IMG/VR virus record: IMGVR_UViG_3300029610_000357
Coordinates: 52,285 to 116,284 of that record
Reading direction: 5' to 3' (one strand)
Source: a virus
Taxonomy: Duplodnaviria > Heunggongvirae > Uroviricota > Caudoviricetes
DNA length: 64,000 nucleotides
Part shown: piece by piece, positions 2,253-58,961 of the stretch
Layout: each line of letters opens with the position of its first letter
How positions within the stretch are numbered: position 1 is the first letter of the stretch
Notes under the pieces: model-generated
The model's database searches: none
What the model was told of the DNA's origin: nothing
The model's input: the letters and a program-made list of their open reading frames with translations, nothing else
Program-made: the position numbers and the translations under genes

Positions 2253-2262
2253 TTGGACATAG

Positions 2263-2335
<73 letters not shown>

Positions 2336-2519
2336 ACAAAAAGAGTACATTGTAACTACCAACAATGTACTCAAACTTAGAAAAGAGGTATAAATTATGA
2401 TTCCTACAAGAAATCTTAATAGCTTTGTAAATCTTTCTGAGGTATGAAACAACAGTAGAAAAGCGCAATAATCAAAACTTCACAAGAAAGGAGATAATAT
2501 GATTCCTCAGAAAGATTAA

Positions 2520-2591
2520 CAGGGATAACTGGATTTGAACCAGTGAATACAGCAGTCAAAGTGCTGTGCCTTACCGCTTGGCGATATCCCT
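2520..2591 (-). tRNA. tRNA-Gln(UUG)
   Basis: Acceptor AGGGATA/TATCCCT, anticodon arm CAGCA-CTTTGAC-TGCTG, T-arm ACTGG-TTCAAAT-CCAGT. Confidence 0.9.
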
Positions 2592-3204
2592 ATATGTATT
2601 TTAATTTTAAAGCAGGTCTTCACCTTACAGTCATTTGTGGAATAGTTTGTTCTGCAACATAGTAGATAAGTCTGAGCTTCGAGGAGCGACCTCTAACTTC
2701 TTACCTAAGTCTAAAAGACCAGTTCTATGACATGATCAATACATGCAATGTCAACCCACCATTCAGAATTAAGTTTTATTGTTATATACTCTATTAGCAT
2801 ATATATTCATTTTGAATTTGAACTTGCCCTTAACTGACTTGAGCGACATACCAGCGACTTTTCTTATACACTGTCTTTTGAACAGCTTCACATCAAACTA
2901 CATTATTTGGCTTTTCCACCTTTTACGTACCTGCCAGAGTACGCATTGAAGTGGATTATTCTCCACAGGAGCGTCTATTGTTGTAGCGAAAAGTTCTGTG
3001 CGTTAACCAGACCAAAATGCTGCACAATATCCATTTGCTTGAGAGTTTCTCTCTTGTCCATATCAGATCACTCCGACATAAAAAGAGACACAAAGAACGT
3101 ATCCGTACAATGTATCTCTCCAATTCGACATATGTGCCTAGAATATCTCTCGGACTCATGGCATTGAGTTTTATAACCGAGTTGCTTATGTTTTAAAATA
3201 CAAA
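2592..3204 (-). other. 613-nt ORF-free spacer inside the tRNA array (possible co-transcribed structured RNA)
   Basis: Flanked directly by tRNA-Gln and tRNA-Trp. Only short overlapping shadow ORFs without RBS, and no tRNA fold found by eye. Confidence 0.3.
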
Positions 3205-3276
3205 CACCCTAAGCTGGATTTGAACCAGCACGAACGGTTTTGGAGACCGTCATTCTACCAACTAAATTATTAGGGC
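3205..3276 (-). tRNA. tRNA-Trp(CCA)
   Basis: Acceptor GCCCTAA/TTAGGGT, anticodon arm ACGGT-CTCCAAA-ACCGT, T-arm GCTGG-TTCAAAT-CCAGC. Confidence 0.85.
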
Positions 3277-3283
3277 GATATTA

Positions 3284-3357
3284 CTGACATGACAGGACTC
3301 GAACCTGCAACACCAACGTCCGTAGCGTTGTGCTCTGTCCAGTTGAGCTACATGTCA
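3284..3357 (-). tRNA. tRNA-Arg(ACG)
   Basis: Acceptor TGACATG/CATGTCA, D-arm GCTC..GAGC, anticodon arm CAACG-CTACGGA-CGTTG, T-loop TTCGAGT. Confidence 0.9.
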
Positions 3358-3570
3358 ATAACGAATATGTATTTACCTCTCATACGTACACACTGGCGAG
3401 ACAATACATATTTCTAAAAAGCAACAGTGTGTAAGTATTGCTTTTCTAGGGCGAACTGAAGTGATGAACTCCATCAGAATATCAGAAGAGGTATACATTC
3501 CAATATCCACCAACCATCAGGGTGTTCGCATATTTTTTGGTTAATCTATCGTATAGTTACTAACCTAATC

Positions 3571-3656
3571 ATCCCTGTTGAGGGAATCGAACCCACTCGT
3601 GACCGAAGCCGCAAAATTTACAGTTTTGCCTGTCTCCTTAGCAGTATAAACAGGGA
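3571..3656 (-). tRNA. tRNA-Tyr(GUA), type II with long variable arm
   Basis: Acceptor TCCCTGT/ACAGGGA, anticodon arm GCAAAA-CTGTAAA-TTTTGC, variable arm GGCTTCGGTCAC, T-loop TTCGATT. Confidence 0.8.
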
Positions 3657-3695
3657 TATTAGCCCACAAGTCCGAAGAACATTGTAGGACAAACA

Positions 3696-3770
3696 TCACA
3701 CCAACGAGAGTCGAACTCGTATTGCATCCGTGAAAGGGATGTGTCCTAAAACCATTTAGACGATGGTGCG
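3696..3770 (-). tRNA. tRNA-Glu(UUC)
   Basis: Acceptor CGCACCA/TGGTGTG, Glu-type D-arm GTCT..AGGAC, anticodon arm CATCC-CTTTCAC-GGATG, T-arm ACGAG-TTCGACT-CTCGT. Confidence 0.85.
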
Positions 3771-3776
3771 ATTTAG

Positions 3777-3868
3777 CGTACGGACTGGGCTACGACCCCA
3801 GGATACACATGTTCGTATGTATACAGGATTAGCAATCCTGCGCATTAAACCAGCTCTGCCACCCGTAC
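3777..3868 (-). tRNA. tRNA-Ser(GCU), type II
   Basis: Acceptor GTACGGG/TCCGTAC, anticodon arm CAGGA-TTGCTAA-TCCTG, 22-nt variable arm, T-arm CTGGG-GTCGTAG-CCCAG (non-canonical T-loop). Confidence 0.8.
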
Positions 3869-4201
3869 ATAATTTTTTGTAGACCACTTTTAATCAAAGA
3901 TTCACTTCCAAACCACATGAGTCAAATTATCGTTAAGCTTCTACACGTCTTGTCTCTTGTACTTCGAAACAAGCATTCTCCGATTTATGGTTTCTTTTGC
4001 TGTTCAGTAGCTAATCTACTGCAAACAATTGACTCACCAACAACTTCCGCAGAAGCATTGGATCTTCTTTTTGTTGGGCACGCAAGGTGCAATGTTTTGC
4101 CTGTTGTCAGCAGACACTACTACATATGTGTCTATGAGTTGCTGACAATATTTAATGACCTATAGGCGATATTTCTTACGTGTGATAACATTAGCTTTTT
4201 G

Positions 4202-4591: not shown

Positions 4592-4794
4592 GTTTATCTC
4601 CTTTGGTTGCTTTTACAAGTTTCCTCTGGAGGTCTATATATGTTATGGACAGTTGCAAGTCTCGGATGTCATCTCTGATTTTTGTTTTTAGCATAGACCT
4701 CGGAACCTACGAAGCGAATATTCTTTGTTGAAACAGCGTAGGCGTGAATCTTTGATCCACTGGCATTTTGAGATTTTATCTGTCCGAATAACCA

Positions 4795-4917
4795 ATTATT
4801 TATTCTTGGAATCTTTTTTGATCTGCTGGCGTTTCTTGAATGGAACTGGTTTCAATCCCCATGCAGTTCTTAAATCTTCCAGTGAGTTGTAATGTTCAGT
4901 TACTGTATTCCTTTTCA
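4795..4917 (-). CDS. small ORF (40 aa) directly downstream of structured element copy 1
   Basis: Own translation MKRNTVTEHYNSLEDLRTAWGLKPVPFKKRQQIKKDSKNK*. AGGAAGGA RBS 8 nt upstream. Confidence 0.3.
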
Positions 4918-4920
4918 TTG

Positions 4921-5017
4921 CTTATATCCTTCCTTTCATATATCACTATTTTACCACCCCTTCAAAACACTAGGTTTTACCTAGGTTTCTGAGGGGTATT
5001 TAATGTGGTAATTCTGC
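4921..5017 (-). ncRNA. conserved structured element, copy 1 of 3
   Basis: Minus sense: TTACCAC-ATTAAATA-CCCCTCAGAAAC..hairpin..GTTTTGAAGGGG-TGGTAAAATAGTGATATATG-AAGGAAGGA. Homologous to 5107-5202 and 47683-47772. Confidence 0.45.
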
Positions 5018-5213: not shown

Positions 5214-6068
5214 TTATTTTTTGTCAGAATTATAGTATTTGGTATATCTATTTAACTGCATTTCACTCTTACAAGAAGTACAATACTGTCTAAGCCGTCC
5301 TTTACGATGCTTTTTCTTTTTTGAGATGTCTCTAAAAGGTTCTCCACAACAGGAGCATACAGAAATCTCAGGATATCCAATAAAGTGAAGGTATCTGTTC
5401 CCAAGATTCTTGAAGTCTGTAATCTCAAGAGCAACATCTCCTGAATCGACAAGAATATCTACAGAGAAGTTTAAGCTATTAACTTTCTTGCTCATTGTTA
5501 TACAATCGCTTCTGAACAGCCTGCCGATTATTTGGCATCTACGTTCTCTTGTACCTACTGTATTACCCAATGAGAATAAATATTTGTAGTCTGTATTCAC
5601 CCAATTATTGTTTTGAGGATTCAGAGCATTATAATACTTGGCCAAGCAAAGAGCAGTGAAGAGAATCTTTTGATCTCTAAGATTCTCTAACCCATTTATG
5701 GTTTCCATTTCAGACTCATAGATCGGCAGTGAATCAATTTCCACAAGAGGATACTTTTTAGCTTTGTGAATGATCTCATCAATGCATGAATACCATTTAG
5801 CTTCTCTGTAGCTCTCACAGGACTCTTTTAAGAACTCATTGATAGTTTTATATACCTGTGCAGGTTCTAAGCCTTTCTCGTGGATGTAATACTTTGCAAG
5901 CAGGGTAGCAGTATATGGGATACTGCTTTCCAACTCTTTTGTTTCTAAAATTTTTTCTACCAGTGTTTTTTCATTCAGTACGATATTAATAACAATCAGC
6001 CTCCTCAAACATAGATGATTCAATTTGTTTAATAGTTTCAATGACGAAAGAATCTCCGTCATATTCAA
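5214..6068 (-). CDS. hypothetical protein with C-terminal zinc ribbon (CSCCG..CTSC); start uncertain
   Basis: ORF track. The 5' 83 nt overlap the upstream gene, so the true start may be internal. Confidence 0.5.
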   Translation of the reverse strand: MNMTEILSSLKLLNKLNHLCLRRLIVINIVLNEKTLVEKILETKELESSIPYTATLLAKYYIHEKGLEPAQVYKTINEFLKESCESYREAKWYSCIDEIIHKAKKYPLVEIDSLPIYESEMETINGLENLRDQKILFTALCLAKYYNALNPQNNNWVNTDYKYLFSLGNTVGTRERRCQIIGRLFRSDCITMSKKVNSLNFSVDILVDSGDVALEITDFKNLGNRYLHFIGYPEISVCSCCGEPFRDISKKKKHRKGRLRQYCTSCKSEMQLNRYTKYYNSDKK

Positions 6069-7128
6069 AATCTCCTGATTCAGCTCTTACAGGATAAGAG
6101 ATCTGGTGATAGTTTCTCTCTAAGAGTCTTTGGACAAGGATGTCTCCAAACATGTCCCATACAAACTGCTTACTCTTGCCATTGGTATAGCAGAGGTCAA
6201 GAAGAATGTCACAAGCTTTCTCAGGATCAGGAACAGCAGTGGCAACAGCTTCTCTGAACAACATGACTCGGTTATTGATGATGTCTGTTACATTTAGTCC
6301 AAAGACACCCCGGCCATTGATTAGAGCATTCAGGGTTTTCATTTTCTTTGAATACTCGCTGTATAACTTCTTAAGAGCATAATAATCATTCTTGTTGTAC
6401 TCATGATCTCTTTTGAGAATGGAGTAATCAAAATCTGTTTGTGTATTCAACTTCTTTAAGTAGCCATCAAACTCATCCTCAAAGAGCTTACAGATTCGAT
6501 TCATTACACAAGGCCCTGTACCTACAGGTAAGAACTTATAGTAGTGATCTAAGAATTCTGCTTCATCCTCTGTGATAGGTTCTGTATCAGCTTTCTTGAG
6601 CAATTCATCAATCGTGCATCCAAACCAGATAATACATTTATCGTTTGAAGCTTTCACATAATTTGTGTAATCCTTTCTCAGGTGAGAGTAAATGTAGATC
6701 ATGAAGTATGGTTTCTTGTCAGCTACGATTCTCTGATTGAATTCTTTTCGCTTACGATCCTTTGATGAGTCTTCAGGATGGATGTTGTTGTCTTTTCTGT
6801 TATACCAGTAAGATGGGATAGGTTTACACACAATGCCCTTCAATTTGTCAATCGAATTTTGTTGGTATAGCTGACCGCAAATGATTCTGTAATCCAGTTC
6901 TTTAAACTCATCACTGTCAGGAGAGTAATGAGACTGTACTTCAAACTGAGAAGTGATGATGTTTGTTGTGAAGCCAATTTCGTCTCCAAAGGCATCCTTG
7001 TAAGCTTTTAAAATGTCTTTTCGTTTAGGGACAATCTTGTTAGCTTTGCGTTGAGCACAAATGATTGATGGAAGAGGACGATTGTTTTCAACAAGTATTC
7101 TATTGTTAGTTGTGAAGAAGAGGTCTCC
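5986..7128 (-). CDS. YonO-like single-subunit two-barrel RNA polymerase candidate, exon 2
   Basis: Frame stays open upstream of the track start. Own translation from 7128 gives GDLFFTTNNRILVENNRPLPSIICAQRKANKIVPKRKD...LKGIVCKPIPSYWY. Length is 1143 nt (381 codons), joining in frame to exon 1. Confidence 0.6.
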   Translation of the reverse strand, partial: GDLFFTTNNRILVENNRPLPSIICAQRKANKIVPKRKDILKAYKDAFGDEIGFTTNIITSQFEVQSHYSPDSDEFKELDYRIICGQLYQQNSIDKLKGIVCKPIPSYWYNRKDNNIHPEDSSKDRKRKEFNQRIVADKKPYFMIYIYSHLRKDYTNYVKASNDKCIIWFGCTIDELLKKADTEPITEDEAEFLDHYYKFLPVGTGPCVMNRICKLFEDEFDGYLKKLNTQTDFDYSILKRDHEYNKNDYYALKKLYSEYSKKMKTLNALINGRGVFGLNVTDIINNRVMLFREAVATAVPDPEKACDILLDLCYTNGKSKQFVWDMFGDILVQRLLERNYHQISYPVRAESGDFEYDGDSFVIETIKQIESSMFEEADCY

Positions 7129-7464
7129 CGATGTACCCTCGGTTTCCCGATATTTATGGAGAAAGGGGACTAGACTATATCATTACACAGCATAGGTCTT
7201 ACACTGTGATGCTCGGCACTTCCCTTGGGGAGTTTCACCCTTTTGGTACTCTACTTGCTACCGATACCGTATTCCTCGAATATCAGTGCTTTGGATAGTC
7301 GTTTGACTTTCAATTTCTGCTTAGCACAGGATTACCACCGGCATTACCCGCTGAGGCTCCCCTGTTAGCATATGCGTTAACTTCCATTTCCTGAAGCTAC
7401 TGTACGTCACATATACACCTTACATTTGTAAGTTCACCGAGTTTTACTTCGACCAAGTAAACTA
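7129..7464 (-). ncRNA. group I self-splicing intron, ORF-less (336 nt)
   Basis: 5' exon ends UUCGAU. The intron guide GUCGAA (11 nt in) pairs with it, giving a U.G wobble at the splice site. The intron ends ..GGUACAUCG (terminal G). It contains GAUAUAGUCUAGUCC and is homologous to the intron at 56040-56387. Confidence 0.7.
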
Positions 7465-9114
7465 ATCGAAGTCGCAACCGTTAAGTGATTCACATGTATT
7501 ATCCCAATCATTGATCACACAAATGGATGGGAGATACTGGAACCAGTATGAAAGCTGCTCATTGTTCTTCACTTTAAGATTGACGATGTTATAATGGCTT
7601 GTCATTGGAGCTCTGAAGCAAGCTACTTCATCAACCTGTCTATCGATCCAATGCTTGTGATACATTTCTCCTGCTTTAAGCAATCCTGTAACTTCAAGTC
7701 CAAACATGGATTGCATGAGAGCATATGGATCACCAGCAACGATTGAATAATTACCTTTCACTTTGATGCGTCCGATCTTAGCATCTTGGATTCGTTTCTT
7801 GATGAGAGAATGAATCTTAGATCGAATGAAAGGATCTTTGATCATCTCAGGTTCAGCTATGAGTGCCTGAATGTATGTAAAAGCATCTGACTGTAAGATG
7901 TTCTTCTCAGTCATATTCTTACCTCGCAGGAAGAGCAGAGTCTTTCTGTAATCCATCCCAAGAATGTCTTTGATCTCTTTTATGGTTGGCTCACAAAGCT
8001 CTCTTATTTGGTCGTCTGTAAGATAATAGCTCTGTAAGAACTGATAGTTAAGATTCCTTTCAGTATCACATTCTTGTTCGGCTGTTTTGGCAAGAGCAAA
8101 GTGATAATCATACTTCTCAATGTTCTCTAAGTAGTCTTCCATAGAGTCATATGCATCCCATAGCTTAAACATAGATGTTGTAAGTATCACCTGAGCGTCT
8201 CTAACGTCCCTAGGATGGCCCCAAGCATCAATAATGGTATAAGTCTTAGCTACGTCCTCTGCAAAGGCTCTAAAGTCCATACAGTGAAGCATACCTTTAC
8301 AGAATGGCCATCCTCTCATGTTGCCAGATGGAAGAGGAGTATCATAATCTCCATTCAGTTCACCATTCCATTGTCTTGCAAGTTCTGGAAGAACTAATCC
8401 TTCTCCATCAGACCCATTGTGTACAAACTCTTGATCATCAAGAAGAGTTACTTCTGGTTCATCTGAGTTTGTATCATCCACATAAAGAGCTTGTCCCTTA
8501 AAGATCGTCTCACAGTCTTGTACAACAATCACTCCTGATGGTGGAGTAACAACTGTAGAAGAAGAGCAGAAGAGTGCTTTGTACGCTCCGAGCTTGTTTG
8601 GTATGATCGGAACTTCTTTATTCCTCCCGGCATCTACTTTCTCACAGAGAGCATCGTATACATTGTCACTGACAAAGATTACAACACTGTTCTTTAAGCC
8701 TCCTGTGGTTCCTAAGAAGAGATTGTAGTGGAGATCATTTACAATGAATCCATGCTTGCTGCAGTAGTCATAATCTTTCTTTGTGTCGAAGACCACTGTG
8801 AGGTAGTCTGTTTGGAATCGACATTTGTACAGATCATTGTAGAGTAGTGAGATAAGTTCTTTGCTTCCTCTGTTGGCTGAAAGCTCTTTGATCTTCTTTC
8901 GGATTCTTTTTGCTCTTATGTCTGAATCATAGTCATGGATCAATGAGTCAATTGTTCTTAATGCTTCAGAACTTGAAAGAGTAATAATGTCGTCTCCATT
9001 CTCCCTCGCTTCATTGAGTGGTAGAGAAAGTTTCCACTTCGCCTTTCTTAATCGGCTGCTGTGTAGTTTGTAAATATATTTCTGACTCGTTTTTTGCTTA
9101 GAAATAATGATCAC
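7465..9114 (-). CDS. YonO-like single-subunit two-barrel RNA polymerase candidate, exon 1
   Basis: 550 codons ending ...CESLNGCDFD. Splicing to exon 2 restores NGCDFDGD, resembling the NADFDGD/DxDGD metal-binding motif of two-barrel RNAPs. Confidence 0.6.
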
Positions 9115-32481: not shown

Positions 32482-32631
32482 GGGGACATAGCTTAATAGG
32501 TAAAGCAAAACTATATTTTTCCATAAAGAACTTAAAACTAAAATTTTCATATTAAATATAAACATTTTGTACCTCCCTATTGTAATAAAATAACACTTAT
32601 ATTTATGTGGGTTCGAGTCCCACTGTCCCCA
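32482..32631 (+). tRNA. tRNA-like gene interrupted by a ~75-nt AT-rich insertion; anticodon unresolved
   Basis: GGGGACA-TA-GCTT-AATAGGTA-AAGC ... GTGGG-TTCGAGT-CCCAC-TGTCCCC-A. Acceptor, D- and T-arms are perfect, but no 5-7-5 anticodon arm can be drawn. Confidence 0.45.
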
Positions 32632-50710: not shown

Positions 50711-52302
50711 GATTAATTAATAAGCGAGCCATTGTACAGGTGTTAGGCTGCTTATTAAATAAACCAGACCTGTTAGATACCTATTATATAGAAGAAATAG
50801 ATGTTGACGAAGACTTTTATGTGTATATTTTGAATACAATTAAAGTTTTACATAAGCAAAATGTACCAGTGATTGATGCATTTGCAATTGATTCTTATCT
50901 ATCGTCTTATGATGCTCAGTATAAGATCTTTTCGATGAATAATGGTGTGGATTACATAGAGAACGCTAAGAAAATAGCTGTTCTTGAGAACTTTGAGTAC
51001 AACTACAAGACTCTTAAGAAGTTCACATTATTGAGATATTACGACTATAAGGGAACTGATATTAAATTCATTTATGATCCAACAAAGTTGAATCCTGAGG
51101 ATCAGGAGAGAGAGACAAGGAAATTAGATGAATATACAGTAGATGAGATTATCGAGCTTGTTGAGCTGGAAATGGTTACAAAGCCTAAGTTACATTTTAA
51201 TACAGTTCAATCAGAACAGGGACAGTTAGCTGGATCTGGACTGAAAGAATTAAAAGAGAAATGGAAACAAGAGCCAGAGTTCGGTATTTCATTACAAAGT
51301 CCAACAATGAACACAATTGCCAGAGGAGCTCGATTGAAAAAGTTTTATTTGAGATCAGGTGGAACAGCCTCAGGTAAAACAAGAATGGCTGTTGGAGATG
51401 TTTGTACGTATTCTGTACCATGGTTTTATGATACTTTCGAGTGCGAATGGAAATTTACAGGTTTCTCAGAGCCAGCTTTGTTTATCTCAACAGAATTAGA
51501 GGCAGATGAGATTCAGAGTATGATCATAGCTTTTGTAAGTGGTGTAAACGAATCTAAAATCTTGGATGGTAAATATTCAGGAGATGAAGAAGAACGTGTA
51601 GATAAAGCTATTCAGTTTATTGAGAGCGCCCCTTTATATATTGAACACATTGATGATTTTGATATTAATGATATTGAGAATCTAATCAAGAGATATAAAA
51701 AAGAAAAGGGTGTGCTGTATGTAAGCTTTGACTACATTCATACATCAGTAAAGTTGATCATGCAAATTGCCAGTATGTCAAAGGGAATGAAATTACAAGA
51801 ACATCAGATCTTATATATGTTTGCTATAAAACTAAAAGAACTCTGCAATAAGTTAGGAGTACATATTGATTCAAGTACACAGCTTAATGGAGAGTATAAA
51901 AATGCAAGAGATAAGGATGAGACTCTCTTGCGAGGCGCAAAAAGTATAGCAGATAAGATAGATATAGGTATTATATCAATGCCTCCGACAAGAGAGGAAC
52001 TCAAAGCAGTAGAACCGATCTTAGAAGACAGAGGCGTAACGATGAATCCAAACTTAATTTACCATATATATAAGGTAAGAAGAGGAAAGATTTCACGAGT
52101 TCGATTGTGGCTTCATGCAGATCTAGGTACATGTAGATCATATGATCTGTTTGTAACAAACAATGACAATGAGCTTATACCAGTCGAACAAATAACAATT
52201 GAAAATGTAGAACAGATTCTTGAAGATAACTCAGTAGAGCATGACGACATTCCATTAAATGAAGAAGAACACGATGAAGCTATTAAGCAGTTTTTCTTTT
52301 AG
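50704..52302 (+). CDS. dnaB: DnaB-like replicative helicase
   Basis: Walker A GGTASGKT, RecA-like core, DnaB-type N-terminal domain. TTG start after GGAGGTGG. Confidence 0.75.
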   Translation: MVGLINKRAIVQVLGCLLNKPDLLDTYYIEEIDVDEDFYVYILNTIKVLHKQNVPVIDAFAIDSYLSSYDAQYKIFSMNNGVDYIENAKKIAVLENFEYNYKTLKKFTLLRYYDYKGTDIKFIYDPTKLNPEDQERETRKLDEYTVDEIIELVELEMVTKPKLHFNTVQSEQGQLAGSGLKELKEKWKQEPEFGISLQSPTMNTIARGARLKKFYLRSGGTASGKTRMAVGDVCTYSVPWFYDTFECEWKFTGFSEPALFISTELEADEIQSMIIAFVSGVNESKILDGKYSGDEEERVDKAIQFIESAPLYIEHIDDFDINDIENLIKRYKKEKGVLYVSFDYIHTSVKLIMQIASMSKGMKLQEHQILYMFAIKLKELCNKLGVHIDSSTQLNGEYKNARDKDETLLRGAKSIADKIDIGIISMPPTREELKAVEPILEDRGVTMNPNLIYHIYKVRRGKISRVRLWLHADLGTCRSYDLFVTNNDNELIPVEQITIENVEQILEDNSVEHDDIPLNEEEHDEAIKQFFF

Positions 52303-54629: not shown

Positions 54630-56039
54630 ATGACAGATTTAGAATTTTATTCATTACACAATCATACTGAATATTCAAATATAAGGTTAATTGATTGTAT
54701 CAATAAGATTCCTATGTTAATCAAAAGAGCGGTTAAATTGGGCATGAAAGGAATTGCGATCACTGATCATGAAACATTAAGTGGTCATATTCAGGCAATG
54801 ATTTATGTCCGTGATGAGAAAAAGAAAGGTAACATTCCCAAGGATTTTAAATTGATTCTTGGGAATGAAATCTATCTAGTCAATGGAACCGCAGATTACA
54901 TAAAGGAAAATTTTAAAGCTGGAGATGGGAAGTTGTTTTATCATTACATTCTTTTAGCAAAGGATGAAATTGGTCATAGACAGCTTAGAGAATTGAGTTC
55001 AAATGCATGGGACAGATCTTTTCAAACAGGAAAAATGACAAGAGTTCCAACTGAGAAATCAGACCTTGAGAAGATCATAAGAAAAGAACCGGGTCATTTG
55101 ATTGCATCGACAGCTTGCTTAGGCGGAGAGCTTCCTACTTTGATTATGCAGATGGAAGAAGCTCAAAGTGAACTGGAAGTATATGAAGCCAAATGTAAAA
55201 TTGATGATTTCGTTCGATGGAACATTGATTTGTTTGGTGAAGATTTCTTTTTTGAAATGCAACCGGGAGCATCTGAAGAACAAGAAAAGGTTAATAAATG
55301 GTTACTTAAATTGTCAAAAGTTTATGGTGTTAAGTGTATCATAACAACCGATTCACATTATTTATCTAAGAATTCTCAGATGATTCATAAAGCGTATTTG
55401 CAAAGTAAAGAGGAAGAAAGAGAAGTAGATGATTTCTATCAGACTACATATTTAATGGAAATTCCAGAAATGTACGATTACATGAAGTACTTTGACGAAG
55501 AAACTATAGCAGAAGCTATCAACAATACAGCGATCATTGGAAACAAGATTAAAGAGTATTCATTAAGTTGTTCTACGATCGTCCCTGAAGCAGAAGTACC
55601 AAAATTTGAAGTAGAAAATTATTTTGAAAAATATTATCAGAGATTTACAACACTGCAGGAATACGCAAATAGCAGCAACATCTATGACAGATATCTGTTG
55701 TACTTAATTGAAAAGGGATATCAGAAGAAAGAAATTCATGCAAAAGTTCGCAGGAATGACTTTACCGAAGAGCAAAAAGTGGAACGAATAGCTATTGAAT
55801 TACAAGAGATGGCATTGGTTACAGAGAAGATTAAGTCAAGTATTTCTTCCTATTATATATCAACCTTAGAACTAATCAATATCATGTGGAAAGAGGGAGA
55901 TAGCTTGGTAGGGGTAGCCAGAGGATCAGTTACTGGTATGTATACAATGTATTTAATTGATTTAATACAAATGAATCCTTTAGATTGGGGATTGCCTCAT
56001 TGGAGACATATTTCCCATGAGAAAGCAGAGTTATCGGAT
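54630..56039 (+). CDS. dnaE: DNA polymerase III alpha (DnaE-like), exon 1 (PHP domain)
   Basis: FYSLHNHTEYS..., ITDHETLSG. The exon ends ...HEKAELSD; the track ORF continues into the intron and stops. Confidence 0.85.
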
Positions 56040-56387
56040 TTGAAAAAGTCCGCTTATATAGTGATATATATGACAAAATGTGGTGAACCCATAAATATGG
56101 GGTGTGCGTAAGTGCTAACGGTATCAGTTAAATAAGGCAAGGCTCGAATACGCTGACTAAGAGAACCTACGGTCTTGAAAGAGATAGCAGGCAATACCGT
56201 GCTAAGTAAAGAAGTGTAACGACTAAATTGGACAAACTTATAAAACTGTCCTAAGAGGAATAAGGTGAAAGTCCTTATCTGTAGTGCCACACACGAGAAA
56301 TCCTTGTATAAGCAAGCCAATGGATTAACATTGGGTGATGAGATAGTCTAGTCCGTACAGAAATATCACGAAAGTGACGGTAGATCG
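56040..56387 (+). ncRNA. group I self-splicing intron, ORF-less (348 nt)
   Basis: 5' exon CGGAU pairs with the intron guide GUCCG (10 nt in), giving a U.G wobble at the splice site. The intron ends GGUAGAUCG and contains GAGAUAGUCUAGUCC. Joining 56039/56388 restores ELSD-VDIDS (the PDIDID region) in frame with 56559..58961. Confidence 0.75.
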
Positions 56388-58961
56388 GTTGATATTGATT
56401 CACAAAAGAATCGTAGAGAACAAATTATCTCTGCTGTAAAAGATCGAAAAGGAGAAAGAAGAGTATTAAATTGTTGTACATTCAAAACAGAAGGTAGCAA
56501 ATCGGCTATTTTAACTTCATGTAGAGCTTTAGGAATTGATCCAGATACTTCTAGTTATTTGGCTGGAATGGTACCAGTAACAAGAGGTGCTACATGGAGT
56601 TTACATGATTGTATATACGGAAACGAAGAAAAAGAACGAGAAGCAGTGCCGGGGTTTGAGAATGAAATGAGAAGTCATGATCAATTACTTGACATTGCAA
56701 TGGGAATTGAAGGACTAATTTGTGGAAGATCTATTCATGCTTCTGCAGTGTATGTCTTTAATGAAGATTTTATTGCTCATAATGCTCGAATGAAAGCCCC
56801 AAATGGAGTGTTAACAACTCAGTTTAATATGGCTGATTCAGATGAATGTGGTGGGTTAAAGATGGATTTCTTAACGATTGAAGCGCTTGACAAGATCCGC
56901 CTGACAATGGAACAGCTCATTGATGCAGGGTATATGGAATGGCAAGGATCATTAAGAGAAACATATGATAAATATCTTCATCCAGATGTTCTTGATTATG
57001 AAACTAGAGAAATGTGGGATTGGGTAGCAGAAAACAAAGTTGTGGATCTGTTTCAGTTTAATACACAGACAGGATTACAGGCAGCAAGACGTATCCAACC
57101 TCATAGCTTGGAAGAATTGGCTGCAGCAAACTCTATTATGAGACTTATGGTAACAGAAGAGGGAGCTGAACAGCCGATTGATACTTATATTAGATTTAAA
57201 AATGATATTGGCCAATGGTATGACTTGATGAGAACGAAGTATCATTTGACTGATCATGAAATTGAAATTTTAGAGAAATACCTTAAATCCAATTATGGTG
57301 TAGGTGATACTCAGGAAATTGTAATGGAAATCAGTATGGATAAAGAGATTGCTGATTTTAGTGTTGCTGATAGCAATAAGCTGAGGAAAAGTATTGCAAA
57401 GAAGAAACCAGCTTTACAGCAAGCAATGAAAGAGCAATTTTTTGAGAGGGGAAAAGAAAACCATGCTTCAGATAATCTGTTGAACTACGTTTGGAAAGAA
57501 GTTGTAGGGAAACAGCTTGGGTATTCCTTTTCTAAGAATCATACCTATCCATACAGTGCTATAGGATTGCAGGAGTTAAATCTTGCATATCATTATCCGA
57601 TTATTTATTGGAATACAGCTTGCTTAACCGTAAATGCAGGAGCTGATGAAGAATCTAAAGGATCTAAGCAGTCTACAGATTACGGAAAAGTAGCAACGTC
57701 TATAGCACAAATGCAGAAGAGAGGTATTAAAATTCAAGCTCCACTGATTAACAAAGCGGAATTAGGATTTAAAGCCGATGAAGAGAACAATGCAATCTTA
57801 TTTGCATTAAAGAGTATTTCAGGAATCGGTGATGATGTAGTAGAAATTATAAGACAAGCAAGGCCATTCGCTTCATTTGAAGATTTTTATGAAAGAATGG
57901 TTGCCACAAAGCTAGTCAAAACAGGTCAGGTAATTCAGTTGATTAAAGCAGGTTGCTTTGATGAATTTGATGAAAACAGAGTAGATTTGCTTTATACGAT
58001 CGTAAGATTATGTAAATGTAATCTAATCTCAAGTCTGACTAAATCACAATTGAATCGTATGCAGGAATTACAATTTATGTATCCAGAGCTTAATCTTATT
58101 CCAGATGAAGTTTTAGATGGAATTCAAGTATACAATTTCTCACAGTATGTAAAAGAATTGAAAGTTGTAAAGAAATATATTGATCCGTCAAGAAAAATGT
58201 TGAAGTGTGGCTATCATGATGAAATCATTGAACTAGATGATAGAGCAATGCAATTTTTCATAAATCACTACACAGAAGATTCCATCTATGACGTTAAAGA
58301 TGAATATTACTTGATTTACAAAAAGAAATTCAATAAAGAAACTGAAAAGAAATTAGAGTCTCTTAGAGAATATCTGGCTAACCCGAATACATTACTTAAG
58401 TATAATAAAGCTCTCGTGAAAGATGAGGCCAAGAAAGTGGTTACAGGAACCACATCTCATATGGAAATGGAATCACTGTGTGTTTATGTACATGAACATG
58501 AATTGGCAGACCTTAACAAAGATGAATTCAATATCGTCAATTTCTTTAATCTTTCAGAAGAACCAGTAGTTGCATCTACGTATAAAAGAAAGGTTAAGAG
58601 GGTTGAGAATGGACAAGAGATTCAAGAAGTCAAAGAGTTCCCTAAGTATTTTATTAGTAAGATCTGGGGAACTGTCTTAGACAAGAATAAGGATCGACAT
58701 ACGGTTACATTATTGACCCCTGAGGGAGTTGTAAATGTGAAATATACCAAAGGAGCTTTCTTACATTATAACAAGAAGACCTCAATAGAAGAGTCTTGGT
58801 TCAAGAGAGGCCAAATAATAATGGTTACTGGGTATCGCAATGGCGATATGTTCAGATGCTATAACTATGGAGACACAATCTTCAAACATACTACATCATT
58901 GATTACAAACATCGGAGAGAAAGGAGTAGAGGTAATGACAGAAAGGATGAGAGAAGCATGA
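56388..58961 (+). CDS. dnaE: DNA polymerase III alpha (DnaE-like), exon 2
   Basis: Own translation from 56388: VDIDSQKNRREQIISAVKDRKGERRVLNCCTFKTEGSKSAIL..., 57 codons upstream of and in frame with the track ORF. Confidence 0.85.
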   Translation, partial: VDIDSQKNRREQIISAVKDRKGERRVLNCCTFKTEGSKSAILTSCRALGIDPDTSSYLAGMVPVTRGATWSLHDCIYGNEEKEREAVPGFENEMRSHDQLLDIAMGIEGLICGRSIHASAVYVFNEDFIAHNARMKAPNGVLTTQFNMADSDECGGLKMDFLTIEALDKIRLTMEQLIDAGYMEWQGSLRETYDKYLHPDVLDYETREMWDWVAENKVVDLFQFNTQTGLQAARRIQPHSLEELAAANSIMRLMVTEEGAEQPIDTYIRFKNDIGQWYDLMRTKYHLTDHEIEILEKYLKSNYGVGDTQEIVMEISMDKEIADFSVADSNKLRKSIAKKKPALQQAMKEQFFERGKENHASDNLLNYVWKEVVGKQLGYSFSKNHTYPYSAIGLQELNLAYHYPIIYWNTACLTVNAGADEESKGSKQSTDYGKVATSIAQMQKRGIKIQAPLINKAELGFKADEENNAILFALKSISGIGDDVVEIIRQARPFASFEDFYERMVATKLVKTGQVIQLIKAGCFDEFDENRVDLLYTIVRLCKCNLISSLTKSQLNRMQELQFMYPELNLIPDEVLDGIQVYNFSQYVKELKVVKKYIDPSRKMLKCGYHDEIIELDDRAMQFFINHYTEDSIYDVKDEYYLIYKKKFNKETEKKLESLREYLANPNTLLKYNKALVKDEAKKVVTGTTSHMEMESLCVYVHEHELADLNKDEFNIVNFFNLSEEPVVASTYKRKVKRVENGQEIQEVKEFPKYFISKIWGTVLDKNKDRHTVTLLTPEGVVNVKYTKGAFLHYNKKTSIEESWFKRGQIIMVTGYRNGDMFRCYNYGDTIFKHTTSLITNIGEKGVEVMTERMREA

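Follow-up and report, generated by a model that had tools for sequence, protein, structure and literature searches.

What interrupts the replicative DNA polymerase gene of the Caudoviricetes phage represented by IMG/VR record IMGVR_UViG_3300029610_000357, and can the gene still yield an intact enzyme? In the stretch analysed here (the window: 64,000 nucleotides (nt), positions 52,285 to 116,284 of that record), a gene of the DnaE/YorL type is broken on the + strand by an insert at 56040–56387, which is called intron D in the following. A preliminary description of the window had taken it for a group I intron without an open reading frame (ORF), homologous to a second one, here intron R, in the RNA polymerase (RNAP) gene on the opposite strand. 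There is little doubt in our view, as far as can be read from the sequence, that the insert is a group I intron of the phage IA type that actively self-splices but is not autonomous in its mobility. The evidence that carries this reading consists of the boundaries of the element, the polymerase restored by its removal, a fold with covariation, membership in a class of phage introns and polymorphism in the phage population. Catalysis by guanosine-initiated transesterification and endonuclease-driven homing would be expected from the established behaviour of the family.

The survey of related phages for intron-less alleles, proposed in the preliminary description, was performed by scanning IMG/VR with the protein around the junction (358-amino-acid (aa) query). 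Four near-identical contigs (L082, L083, L094 and L095) were found to be intron-less. They read ...GAGTTATCGGAC↓GTTGATAT... (TCGGAC↓GTTGAT; the arrow marks the insertion site here and below), and the window has exactly 348 extra nt at this point, while the flanking protein differs by one residue (K55E of the query). Because these close intron-less alleles fix both boundaries, the element is exactly 56040–56387, and the terminal G claimed earlier is G56387. The same 348 nt are present in L084 and L087–L091, a 1030-nt version with an ORF in P6 was found in L085 and L092, and a diverged 407-nt version occupies the identical site in L096 (70% protein identity). More distant relatives (L086, L093 and L098, 62–75% identity) are intron-less. 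Evidently, presence and absence alternate at one precise site among close relatives. The codon at the splice site, compared with L082, L083, L086, L093, L094, L095 and L098, is GAC in all the close intron-less alleles and GAT in all intron-containing ones. This split matches the prediction because P1 needs a U·G pair at the splice site. The third base of the codon may be co-converted with the intron.

Removal of the insert restores the gene. Exon 1 ends as ...GTTATCGGAT at 56039, its last codon being GAT for the first catalytic Asp; unspliced, its ORF from 54630 meets a stop at 56109–56111, 24 codons past the junction. The joining of 56039 to 56388 gives a polymerase of 1327 aa with the predicted junction ...HEKAELSD-VDIDSQKN... 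(...AELSDVDIDSQK...), in frame with 858 codons, stop counted, to the stop at 58961. Pfam finds PHP, DNA_pol3_alpha, finger and HHH domains in the spliced protein (E = 1.7e-40, 5.8e-23, 1.5e-21 and 1e-17, respectively). Its best matches among isolated phages are the YorL proteins of SPbeta-type Bacillus phages, with 48% identity contiguous over the junction, and by tblastn it is colinear with SPbeta yorL over residues 10–1180. A megablast of the whole polymerase gene against isolated phages gave no match. The junction ...AELSD↓VDIDSQK was aligned on ...VSMPDIDTDFSD of Thermus Pol III alpha (3e0d, 2hpi), which places SDVDID on PDIDTD (...ELSDVDIDS on ...SMPDIDTDF). The aligned Asp pair we take to be the catalytic residues, and by this alignment the intron sits exactly between the codons of two neighbouring catalytic aspartates. 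A PDIDID motif had been named as the site of interruption; a catalytic Asp motif is indeed restored by splicing, but it reads SDVDID here.

The polymerase gene stands in a + strand replication module with a DnaB-like helicase, a PD-(D/E)XK nuclease and a RecD2-like helicase, and because of this context it should be needed by the phage. A scan of genome contigs found one locus only, in a Clostridiales metagenome-assembled genome. Together with Enterocloster phage relatives of the RNAP, this points to an SPbeta-like phage of gut Clostridia.

The catalytic motif of a replicative polymerase is a favoured site of inteins too, and so the nature of the insert has to be weighed against an intein, a group II intron or an IStron. 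Consistent with the earlier ORF-less assignment, no open stretch longer than 35 codons was found on the sense strand of intron D; its antisense strand holds an ORF of 88 codons (56054–56320). An intein is contradicted by stops in all the sense frames, the frame from exon 1 ending 24 codons into the insert. No signature of a group II intron or a transposase was detected in the Rfam scan or in the ORFs, and a group I core is demonstrated as described below. Any of these other intervening elements is therefore considered extremely improbable.

The fold of intron D was derived by comparison across related introns, as Rfam scored it under its threshold and minimum free energy (MFE) folding was uninformative. 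The helices are collected in Table 1. Each of the 19 proposed helices has all its pairs in the window, including the P3–P8 core pairings, on which the preliminary description had made its case depend, and the P1 that it had proposed, with the U·G at the splice site, is present in the sequence. The 3′ strand of P3 is preceded by the class anchor GUAGUG, which is GAAG[CU]G in most members. The conserved elements are found as CUAACGGUA (P-like), AAUACCGUGC (Q), AACGACUA (R) and GAGAUAGUC (S), and P7 is the predicted G-binding site. A hand-assigned P4, GGUGAAC/AAUACC, failed on intron R and was replaced by CGGUAU/AUACCG. The internal loop CCUACG/UAGCAGG of P5 looks like a tetraloop receptor and is regarded as a candidate only.

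Covariation was analysed in a D-lineage alignment of six sequences, namely the window, three sibling variants, L096, and L183, in which the intron lies in another gene. In this alignment 97.3% of the cells are in standard pairs and 24 of the 88 pairs are changed on both sides. When the registers were slid by 1–3 columns, the double-changed pairs dropped to 0–7 and the pairing to 31–44%, and none of 500 shuffles reached the observed value. The loop of P7.1, CUUAUA (56237–42), can pair with the loop UAUAAG of the extra hairpin Pd in a loop-loop contact of 6 base pairs. L096 keeps this complementarity (CUCAUA/UAUGAG) along with compensated stems of both P7.1 and Pd. A kissing pair L7.1–Ld is tentatively proposed as plausible from these two independent lineages only.

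Table 1. Positions of the two introns, their host genes and the proposed structural elements of intron D in the window.
Feature	Position	Strand	Description and basis
Group I intron D	56040–56387	+	348 nt, subgroup IA-like, no endonuclease ORF; intron-less alleles, nhmmer profile, Rfam, covariation
DnaE/YorL-type DNA polymerase, exon 1	54630–56039	+	470 codons; PHP domain and first part of Pol III alpha palm; ORF list, translation
DnaE, exon 2	56388–58961	+	857 codons and stop; starts GTT GAT ATT GAT (VDID), second catalytic Asp; translation
P1	56035–39/56048–52	+	CGGAU/guide GUCCG; U56039·G56048 at 5′ splice site; sequence, pair check
P2	56055–60/56065–70	+	UAUAUA-GUGA-UAUAUA; 3 of 6 pairs change on both sides, D-lineage alignment
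P3	56079–83/56287–91	+	5′ strand UGUGG, then invariant UGAAC; 3′ strand CCACA
P3.1	56088–92/56097–101	+	CCCAU/AUGGG; covaries in D lineage and class-wide
P3.2	56104–07/56112–15	+	GUGC-GUAA-GUGC; covaries in D lineage and class-wide
J3/4	56116–18	+	UAA
P4	56119–24/56194–99	+	CGGUAU/AUACCG; region 56119–56199 encloses P4a, P5, P5a
P4a	56125–28/56152–55	+	CAGU/GCUG; small distal hairpin at 56136–44
P5	56166–68/56189–91	+	CCU/AGG
P5a	56172–76/56181–85	+	GUCUU-GAAA-GAGAU, GAAA loop
P6	56201–03/56213–15	+	GCU/AGU, minimal loop: GCU-AAGUAAAGA-AGU; site of GIY-YIG ORF in siblings
P7	56221–25/56344–48	+	GACUA/UAGUC; 5′ strand inside R element AACGACUA; pseudoknot with P3
P7.1	56230–34/56247–51	+	GGACA/UGUCC; between P7 and P3′
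P7.2	56260–65/56273–78	+	AUAAGG-UGAAAGU-CCUUAU, T-loop-like hairpin; between P7 and P3′
Pd (extra hairpin)	56303–06/56313–16	+	CUUG/CAAG, loop UAUAAG (56307–12)
P8	56317–22/56329–34	+	CCAAUG/CAUUGG; A-U to U-A in L096, L183
J8/7 and 3′ strand of P7 (S element)	56335–56348	+	GUGAUGAGA-UAGUC
P9	56353–55/56378–80	+	CCG/CGG
P9a	56366–69/56374–77	+	UCAC-GAAA-GUGA; then tail UAGAUC
Terminal (omega) G	56387	+	intron-less alleles; profile alignment ends there
YonO-like single-subunit RNA polymerase	5986–9114	-	exon 1 9114–7465, exon 2 7128–5986; split inside DFD↓GD; spliced 930 aa
Intron R	7129–7464	-	336 nt, same class as D; P1 CUUCGAU/GUCGAAG; nhmmer E = 1.7e-29

A different idea is that intron D is a ligand-regulated allosteric ribozyme with a cobalamin-riboswitch-like domain at 56237–56312. 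An AdoCbl-II match suggests it, though a weak one (20.2 bits; E = 0.06 when 601 nt were searched), and in our own reading GAGGAA...GGUGAAAGUCC...GCCAC resembles the B12 aptamer core. Nevertheless, the match lies under the gathering score of 36.5, and the parts of the supposed domain have other roles in the intron. The GGUGAAANUCC hairpin is the ordinary P7.2 of the class, whose GG-UGAAANU-CC type, its stems covarying, was found in 13 of 41 members. GCCAC belongs to P3′, paired with 56079–83, and the supposed outer stem is better explained as the loop-loop contact of two covarying hairpins. A riboswitch function is thus held to be highly improbable.

The class to which intron D belongs was delineated by scanning IMG/VR with the pattern TGAAC-N8-24-GGTGT-N6-36-GCTAACRG, found in more than 120 stretches, and separately with the S-element pattern ATGAKATAGTCTAGTCC, which occurs twice in the window (in D and in R) and in 78 IMG/VR stretches. 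From these scans 49 distinct compact class introns were parsed. P3 was probed as the pairing of the five nt upstream of UGAAC with the five that follow the anchor GAAG[CU]G, and it is fully paired in 48 of the 49 members, over 32 different 5-mers; swapping the strands between sequences reduced this to 7%. Class-wide, P3.1 is 90% paired over 30 distinct helices and P3.2 95% over 16, and these extra hairpins are framed by near-invariant UGAAC, GGUGU and GCUAAC. Among the same 49 members AACGACTA is present in 48, GGTGAAC in 24 and GTGCTAAG in 20. The class consensus also matches Lactococcus 949-group, Staphylococcus, Enterococcus and Bacillus phages, and Enterococcus phage EF1 and Staphylococcus phage PG-2021_4 were themselves seen to carry members. 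The nrdD gene of Fusobacterium phage Fnu1 (L237) has a variant with AAAAC replacing UGAAC; in this related intron a GIY-YIG ORF stands at the position of P3.2.

For an independent search, an nhmmer profile was built that left out all D- and R-lineage sequences and drew on 35 class introns from other phage contigs. In the 64-kilobase window it gave only two matches, 56075–56387 (+) with E = 1.7e-28 and 7447–7132 (-) with E = 1.7e-29, well outside what chance would produce. With the covariation of the fold and the exact insertion/deletion among the alleles, the former confirms the group I intron in DnaE that had been claimed at 56040–56387. Distant blastn of intron D returned only blocks of 15–18% coverage.

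With regard to the subgroup, IA introns reportedly carry P7.1 and P7.2 between P7 and P3′, a rule ascribed to Michel and Westhof. Intron D has both hairpins at this place, with covariation, but P3 is not followed by P4 via a short J3/4 only, as P3.1 and P3.2 intervene. P7.1/P7.2 and a 3′ module like that of Kayvirus terminase introns point to an IA (IA2-like) phage intron. P3.1 is named among the optional pairings of group I introns (PMC3873408). No description of a class with the two hairpins P3.1/P3.2 was found in the searchable literature, which is limited, and a literature search on introns in yonO or phage dnaE and on 'P3.2' returned nothing relevant. It is conceivable, at rather less than even chance, that D and R belong to an abundant, uncatalogued phage IA subclass with P3.1 and P3.2 in J3/4 and often a T-loop P7.2; the L7.1–Ld kissing contact would then be a lineage-specific addition of the D lineage. 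In that case, mis-annotation would affect many of the polymerase, RNAP, nrdD and terminase genes that appear 'split' in gut phages.

Several observations weigh against an active intron, for which splicing and homing are deduced from the sequence. Rfam Intron_gpI (RF00028) matches intron D on the same strand and over the same span with 18.1 bits, where 50 would be needed to reach the gathering score. Neither P4 nor P7 varies in the D-lineage alignment, so no covariation comes from either, and the alignment holds only ~3 independent lineages. By inspection, P10 is weak, with at most two A-U pairs. The MFE fold is no better than those of shuffled sequences (z = -1.05), and the core was not recovered in it. 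Moreover, the exon-1 frame enters the intron for 24 codons, through P1, P2, the 5′ strand of P3 and P3.1, and ribosomes translating it could compete with folding of the 5′ part of the ribozyme (56040–56111). Intron R also remains below the Rfam threshold, with 22.2 bits, and at the gathering threshold no intron was found in the window. In our reading, the low score reflects poor coverage of this phage class by the model and not a missing fold.

The low Rfam score, the lack of an endonuclease ORF and the separate ORFs of 493 and 800 aa in the ORF list would also suit a decayed, non-splicing remnant, which would make dnaE a pseudogene or its polymerase a pair of polypeptides. The core helices, however, are all intact and the changes in them compensatory, the 348 nt have stayed almost the same in no fewer than six independent contigs, and both exons are still under protein-level conservation. 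The first start codon of the downstream ORF lies 57 codons past the junction, and its independent translation would lose the second catalytic Asp; the first Asp would lie 24 residues before an intron-encoded tail ends the exon-1 frame. Such decay is judged very unlikely.

For an active intron the following course is proposed. The transcript would fold into P1–P9, and an external guanosine bound at P7 would attack the phosphate after U56039, which is marked by the U·G wobble of P1. The freed 3′-OH of exon 1 would then attack the phosphate after the terminal G56387. This would ligate ...TCG GAT to GTT GAT... and restore one polymerase of 1327 aa. Intron D would be the ORF-less form of an element that in siblings carries a GIY-YIG gene in the loop of P6. 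The element most likely spreads, or spread, between co-infecting phages by endonuclease-driven homing, and intron D may now persist because splicing makes it harmless.

The population provides the background to this proposal. In the 1030-nt allele the ORF is inserted in P6 after GTGCTAAG (L085), and its upstream part reads YIYSITNKVTGYIYVGS...EH. This appears by eye to be the signature of a GIY-YIG endonuclease; Pfam did not score the ATG-delimited part of 172 aa. The window copy encodes no homing endonuclease. Introns D and R assort independently among the siblings: both introns are missing from contigs 099687 and 123968, 144639 has R alone, with an ORF, 121340 has an ORF-less D and an R with an ORF, 117466 and 109075 have a D with an ORF and an ORF-less R, and in 185495, 120075 and the window both are ORF-less. 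Intron D appears mobile as a family and non-autonomous in its window copy.

One of the contigs without intron D, L083 (IMGVR_UViG_3300045988_136265), has two other insertions in dnaE. The first, of 329 nt at 3796–4125, interrupts the third catalytic Asp motif at GGLKMD↓FLT and has a P1-like AUGGAU/GUCCAU and a classical P3-J3/4. The second, of ~313 nt at 4658–4972, lies at SIAK↓KKPAL. Because L083 holds two different insertions, dnaE is an intron hot spot in this phage population. Such behaviour is usual for homing introns directed at invariant catalytic motifs. The genes that phage introns target are, by a general rule given in PMC3984707, those of polymerases, ribonucleotide reductases and terminases.

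The second intron of the window, R, splits the catalytic Asp motif of a YonO-like RNAP. By tblastn the spliced RNAP matches Enterocloster phage PMBT24 without interruption at 44% identity; SPbeta yonO, which is annotated as a DNA-directed RNA polymerase, matches 91% of the query at 26.5% identity. A PDB sequence search gave no match for the RNAP, and its two exons are without a Pfam match. R-less alleles exist in L221–L223, L221 reading ...GACTTCGAT↓GGGGACCTC..., and the intron is ORF-less in the window and several contigs, whereas L026 and L062 have an HNH_3/NUMOD4 ORF in it. In the Bacillus phages phi3T, SPR and SPbetaL4 (e.g. PP526178 50736–52246) the tblastn matches of YonO end at about residue 349, those in SPBc2 reaching 428, and a block resembling the intron 3′ end adjoins yonO in the former three. 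The yonO gene of some SPbeta-like Bacillus phages may itself be interrupted.

The preliminary description had listed sequence blocks shared by D and R (7129–7464, minus strand) and had concluded that one intron lineage colonised both polymerase genes. The blocks are present and the two introns are of the same class, but the blocks correspond to P3/J3-3.1, P4′/P6, J6/7-P7, J8/7-P7′ and the P9 tail, which are core elements found throughout the class. Both introns have P3.1/P3.2, a T-loop hairpin P7.2 and a similar P9 tail, both are ORF-less here with ORF-bearing siblings elsewhere, and both split a catalytic Asp motif. Their peripheries differ. P2, a long P4a/P5 extension and the L7.1–Ld kissing pair are found in intron D, whose P3.2 is short; R lacks P2 and both hairpins of the kissing pair, P7.1 and Pd, and its P5 is short and its P3.2 long. 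In R, P9 is CCC/GGG and P9a UCGG/CCGA, compared with CCG/CGG and UCAC/GUGA in D. The guide sequences differ as well, and the ORFs of the siblings are HNH_3/NUMOD4 for R and GIY-YIG for D.

When all 49 class members were compared with one another, R came 29th among 46 in closeness to D, and D came 19th among 44 in closeness to R. Ranking above R for D are L107, which lies beside an ATPase-like gene, L183, L161, L151 and L176. The closest structurally distinct relative of D is L183 (IMGVR_UViG_3300045988_158107), whose host gene looks nrdD-like (anaerobic ribonucleotide reductase) by eye, without a domain search. A link between D and R was nevertheless seen in five sibling contigs (L018, L041, L055, L067 and L075). 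Their D is otherwise near-identical to that of the window, but P3.1 is CUUAC/GUAAG, and with its flanks it is identical to R (window 7428–7453 (-)) over 26 nt, GGTGAACTTACAAATGTAAGGTGT. The P3.1 of the window (region 56084–56103), CCCAU/AUGGG, is a fully compensated replacement of the CUUAC/GUAAG of these siblings. This suggests that co-resident introns exchanged sequence or that the patch came from an unknown donor.

Whether an intron recently moved between the two polymerase genes within this phage lineage can be judged from these data. The common structural class, with its core blocks and the similar P7.2 and P9 tail, would agree with such a move, and the 26-nt identity could reflect co-resident exchange. 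Against it stand the closer relatives that each intron has elsewhere, the different peripheries, guides and associated endonucleases, and the independent presence and absence of D and R among siblings. We consider a single recent lineage unlikely, and the claim of one coloniser was an over-reading, as closer relatives lie in other genes and phages. D and R are better described as belonging to a common class; that they stem from a single recent coloniser is not demonstrable.

For the phage, these findings would mean that the replicative polymerase and the YonO-like RNAP are each one gene and not two fragments. Standard tools miss such intact polymerase genes because Rfam scores these introns at 18–22 bits compared with the 50 needed. 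The near-identical gut phages provide a clean natural series of a homing element, from the empty site through the intron with its endonuclease to the ORF-less intron; other introns occupy other catalytic motifs of dnaE, and both polymerases of one phage are split in Asp motifs. The locus also contributes a well-supported member to a group I class in which two hairpins separate P3 from J3/4, and the profile built for that class could find many more. The understanding of how group I introns work is unchanged by intron D.

Two further RNA loci of the window were observed. At 32482–32631 (+) an Rfam tRNA match of 42.5 bits has perfect acceptor, D and T arms, with an AT-rich stretch of 93 nt in place of the 15-nt anticodon arm, and ARAGORN makes no call there; this could be a tRNA with an interruption or an element resembling a tRNA. 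At 2262–3868 (-) a ROOL RNA (2594–3205, 306 bits) lies within seven tRNA genes (Thr, Gln, Trp, Arg, Tyr, Glu and Ser).

Among known systems, the T4 td and Twort introns belong to the phage group I introns of subgroup IA (IA2-like), as does the terminase large-subunit intron of the Staphylococcus Kayvirus phiIPLA-RODI. The latter, which is annotated 'group I intron VSR homing endonuclease', shares with D the P1–P9 core, P7.1/P7.2 between P7 and P3′, the R and S elements (AACGACUA, AUAGUC), a P9 hairpin with a GAAA loop and insertion at a conserved site of an essential phage gene. In the Kayvirus terminase introns the 3′ module GATAGTCTAGTCCGTA.AGAAATATCACGAAAGTGACGGTAG is 87–89% identical to that of D. 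The Kayvirus intron, however, runs from P3 straight to J3/4 (AAAACUCUGUUAAACGG), while D has two extra hairpins, no ORF and another host gene.

A closer parallel in terms of the host gene is the DnaE intron of Enterococcus phage EF1 (MF001358; L003 1905–2738), annotated 'HNH homing endonuclease' and 'Phage intron', to which L151 and L176 are similar. These introns have in common with D the gene family, the catalytic motif, TGAAC-hairpin-GGTGT-hairpin-GCTAACGG and the P4a/P5 extension. They are inserted one codon upstream, at P↓D[IV]DxD (P↓DVDID vs D↓VDID), with a guide GGGCA pairing with UGCCU, and the EF1 intron has an HNH ORF in P6 and a different P7.1–P8 region. Because of this one-codon shift, the same catalytic motif has been colonised at least two times, at sites 3 nt apart.

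Group I introns in the catalytic motifs of phage polymerase genes have been textbook knowledge since SPO1 and T4. The DNA polymerase introns of SPO1 and Bastille (Goodrich-Blair 1990; Landthaler & Shub 2003), as cited in PMC3984707, are set apart from D by their description, since they reside in family A polymerases and encode HNH nicking endonucleases. Only the 'DNA polymerase A.1' of phiAGATE matched the class consensus here. Annotated introns in phage dnaE exist as well, EF1 providing a case, and intron D is an ordinary member of a common mobile phage family.

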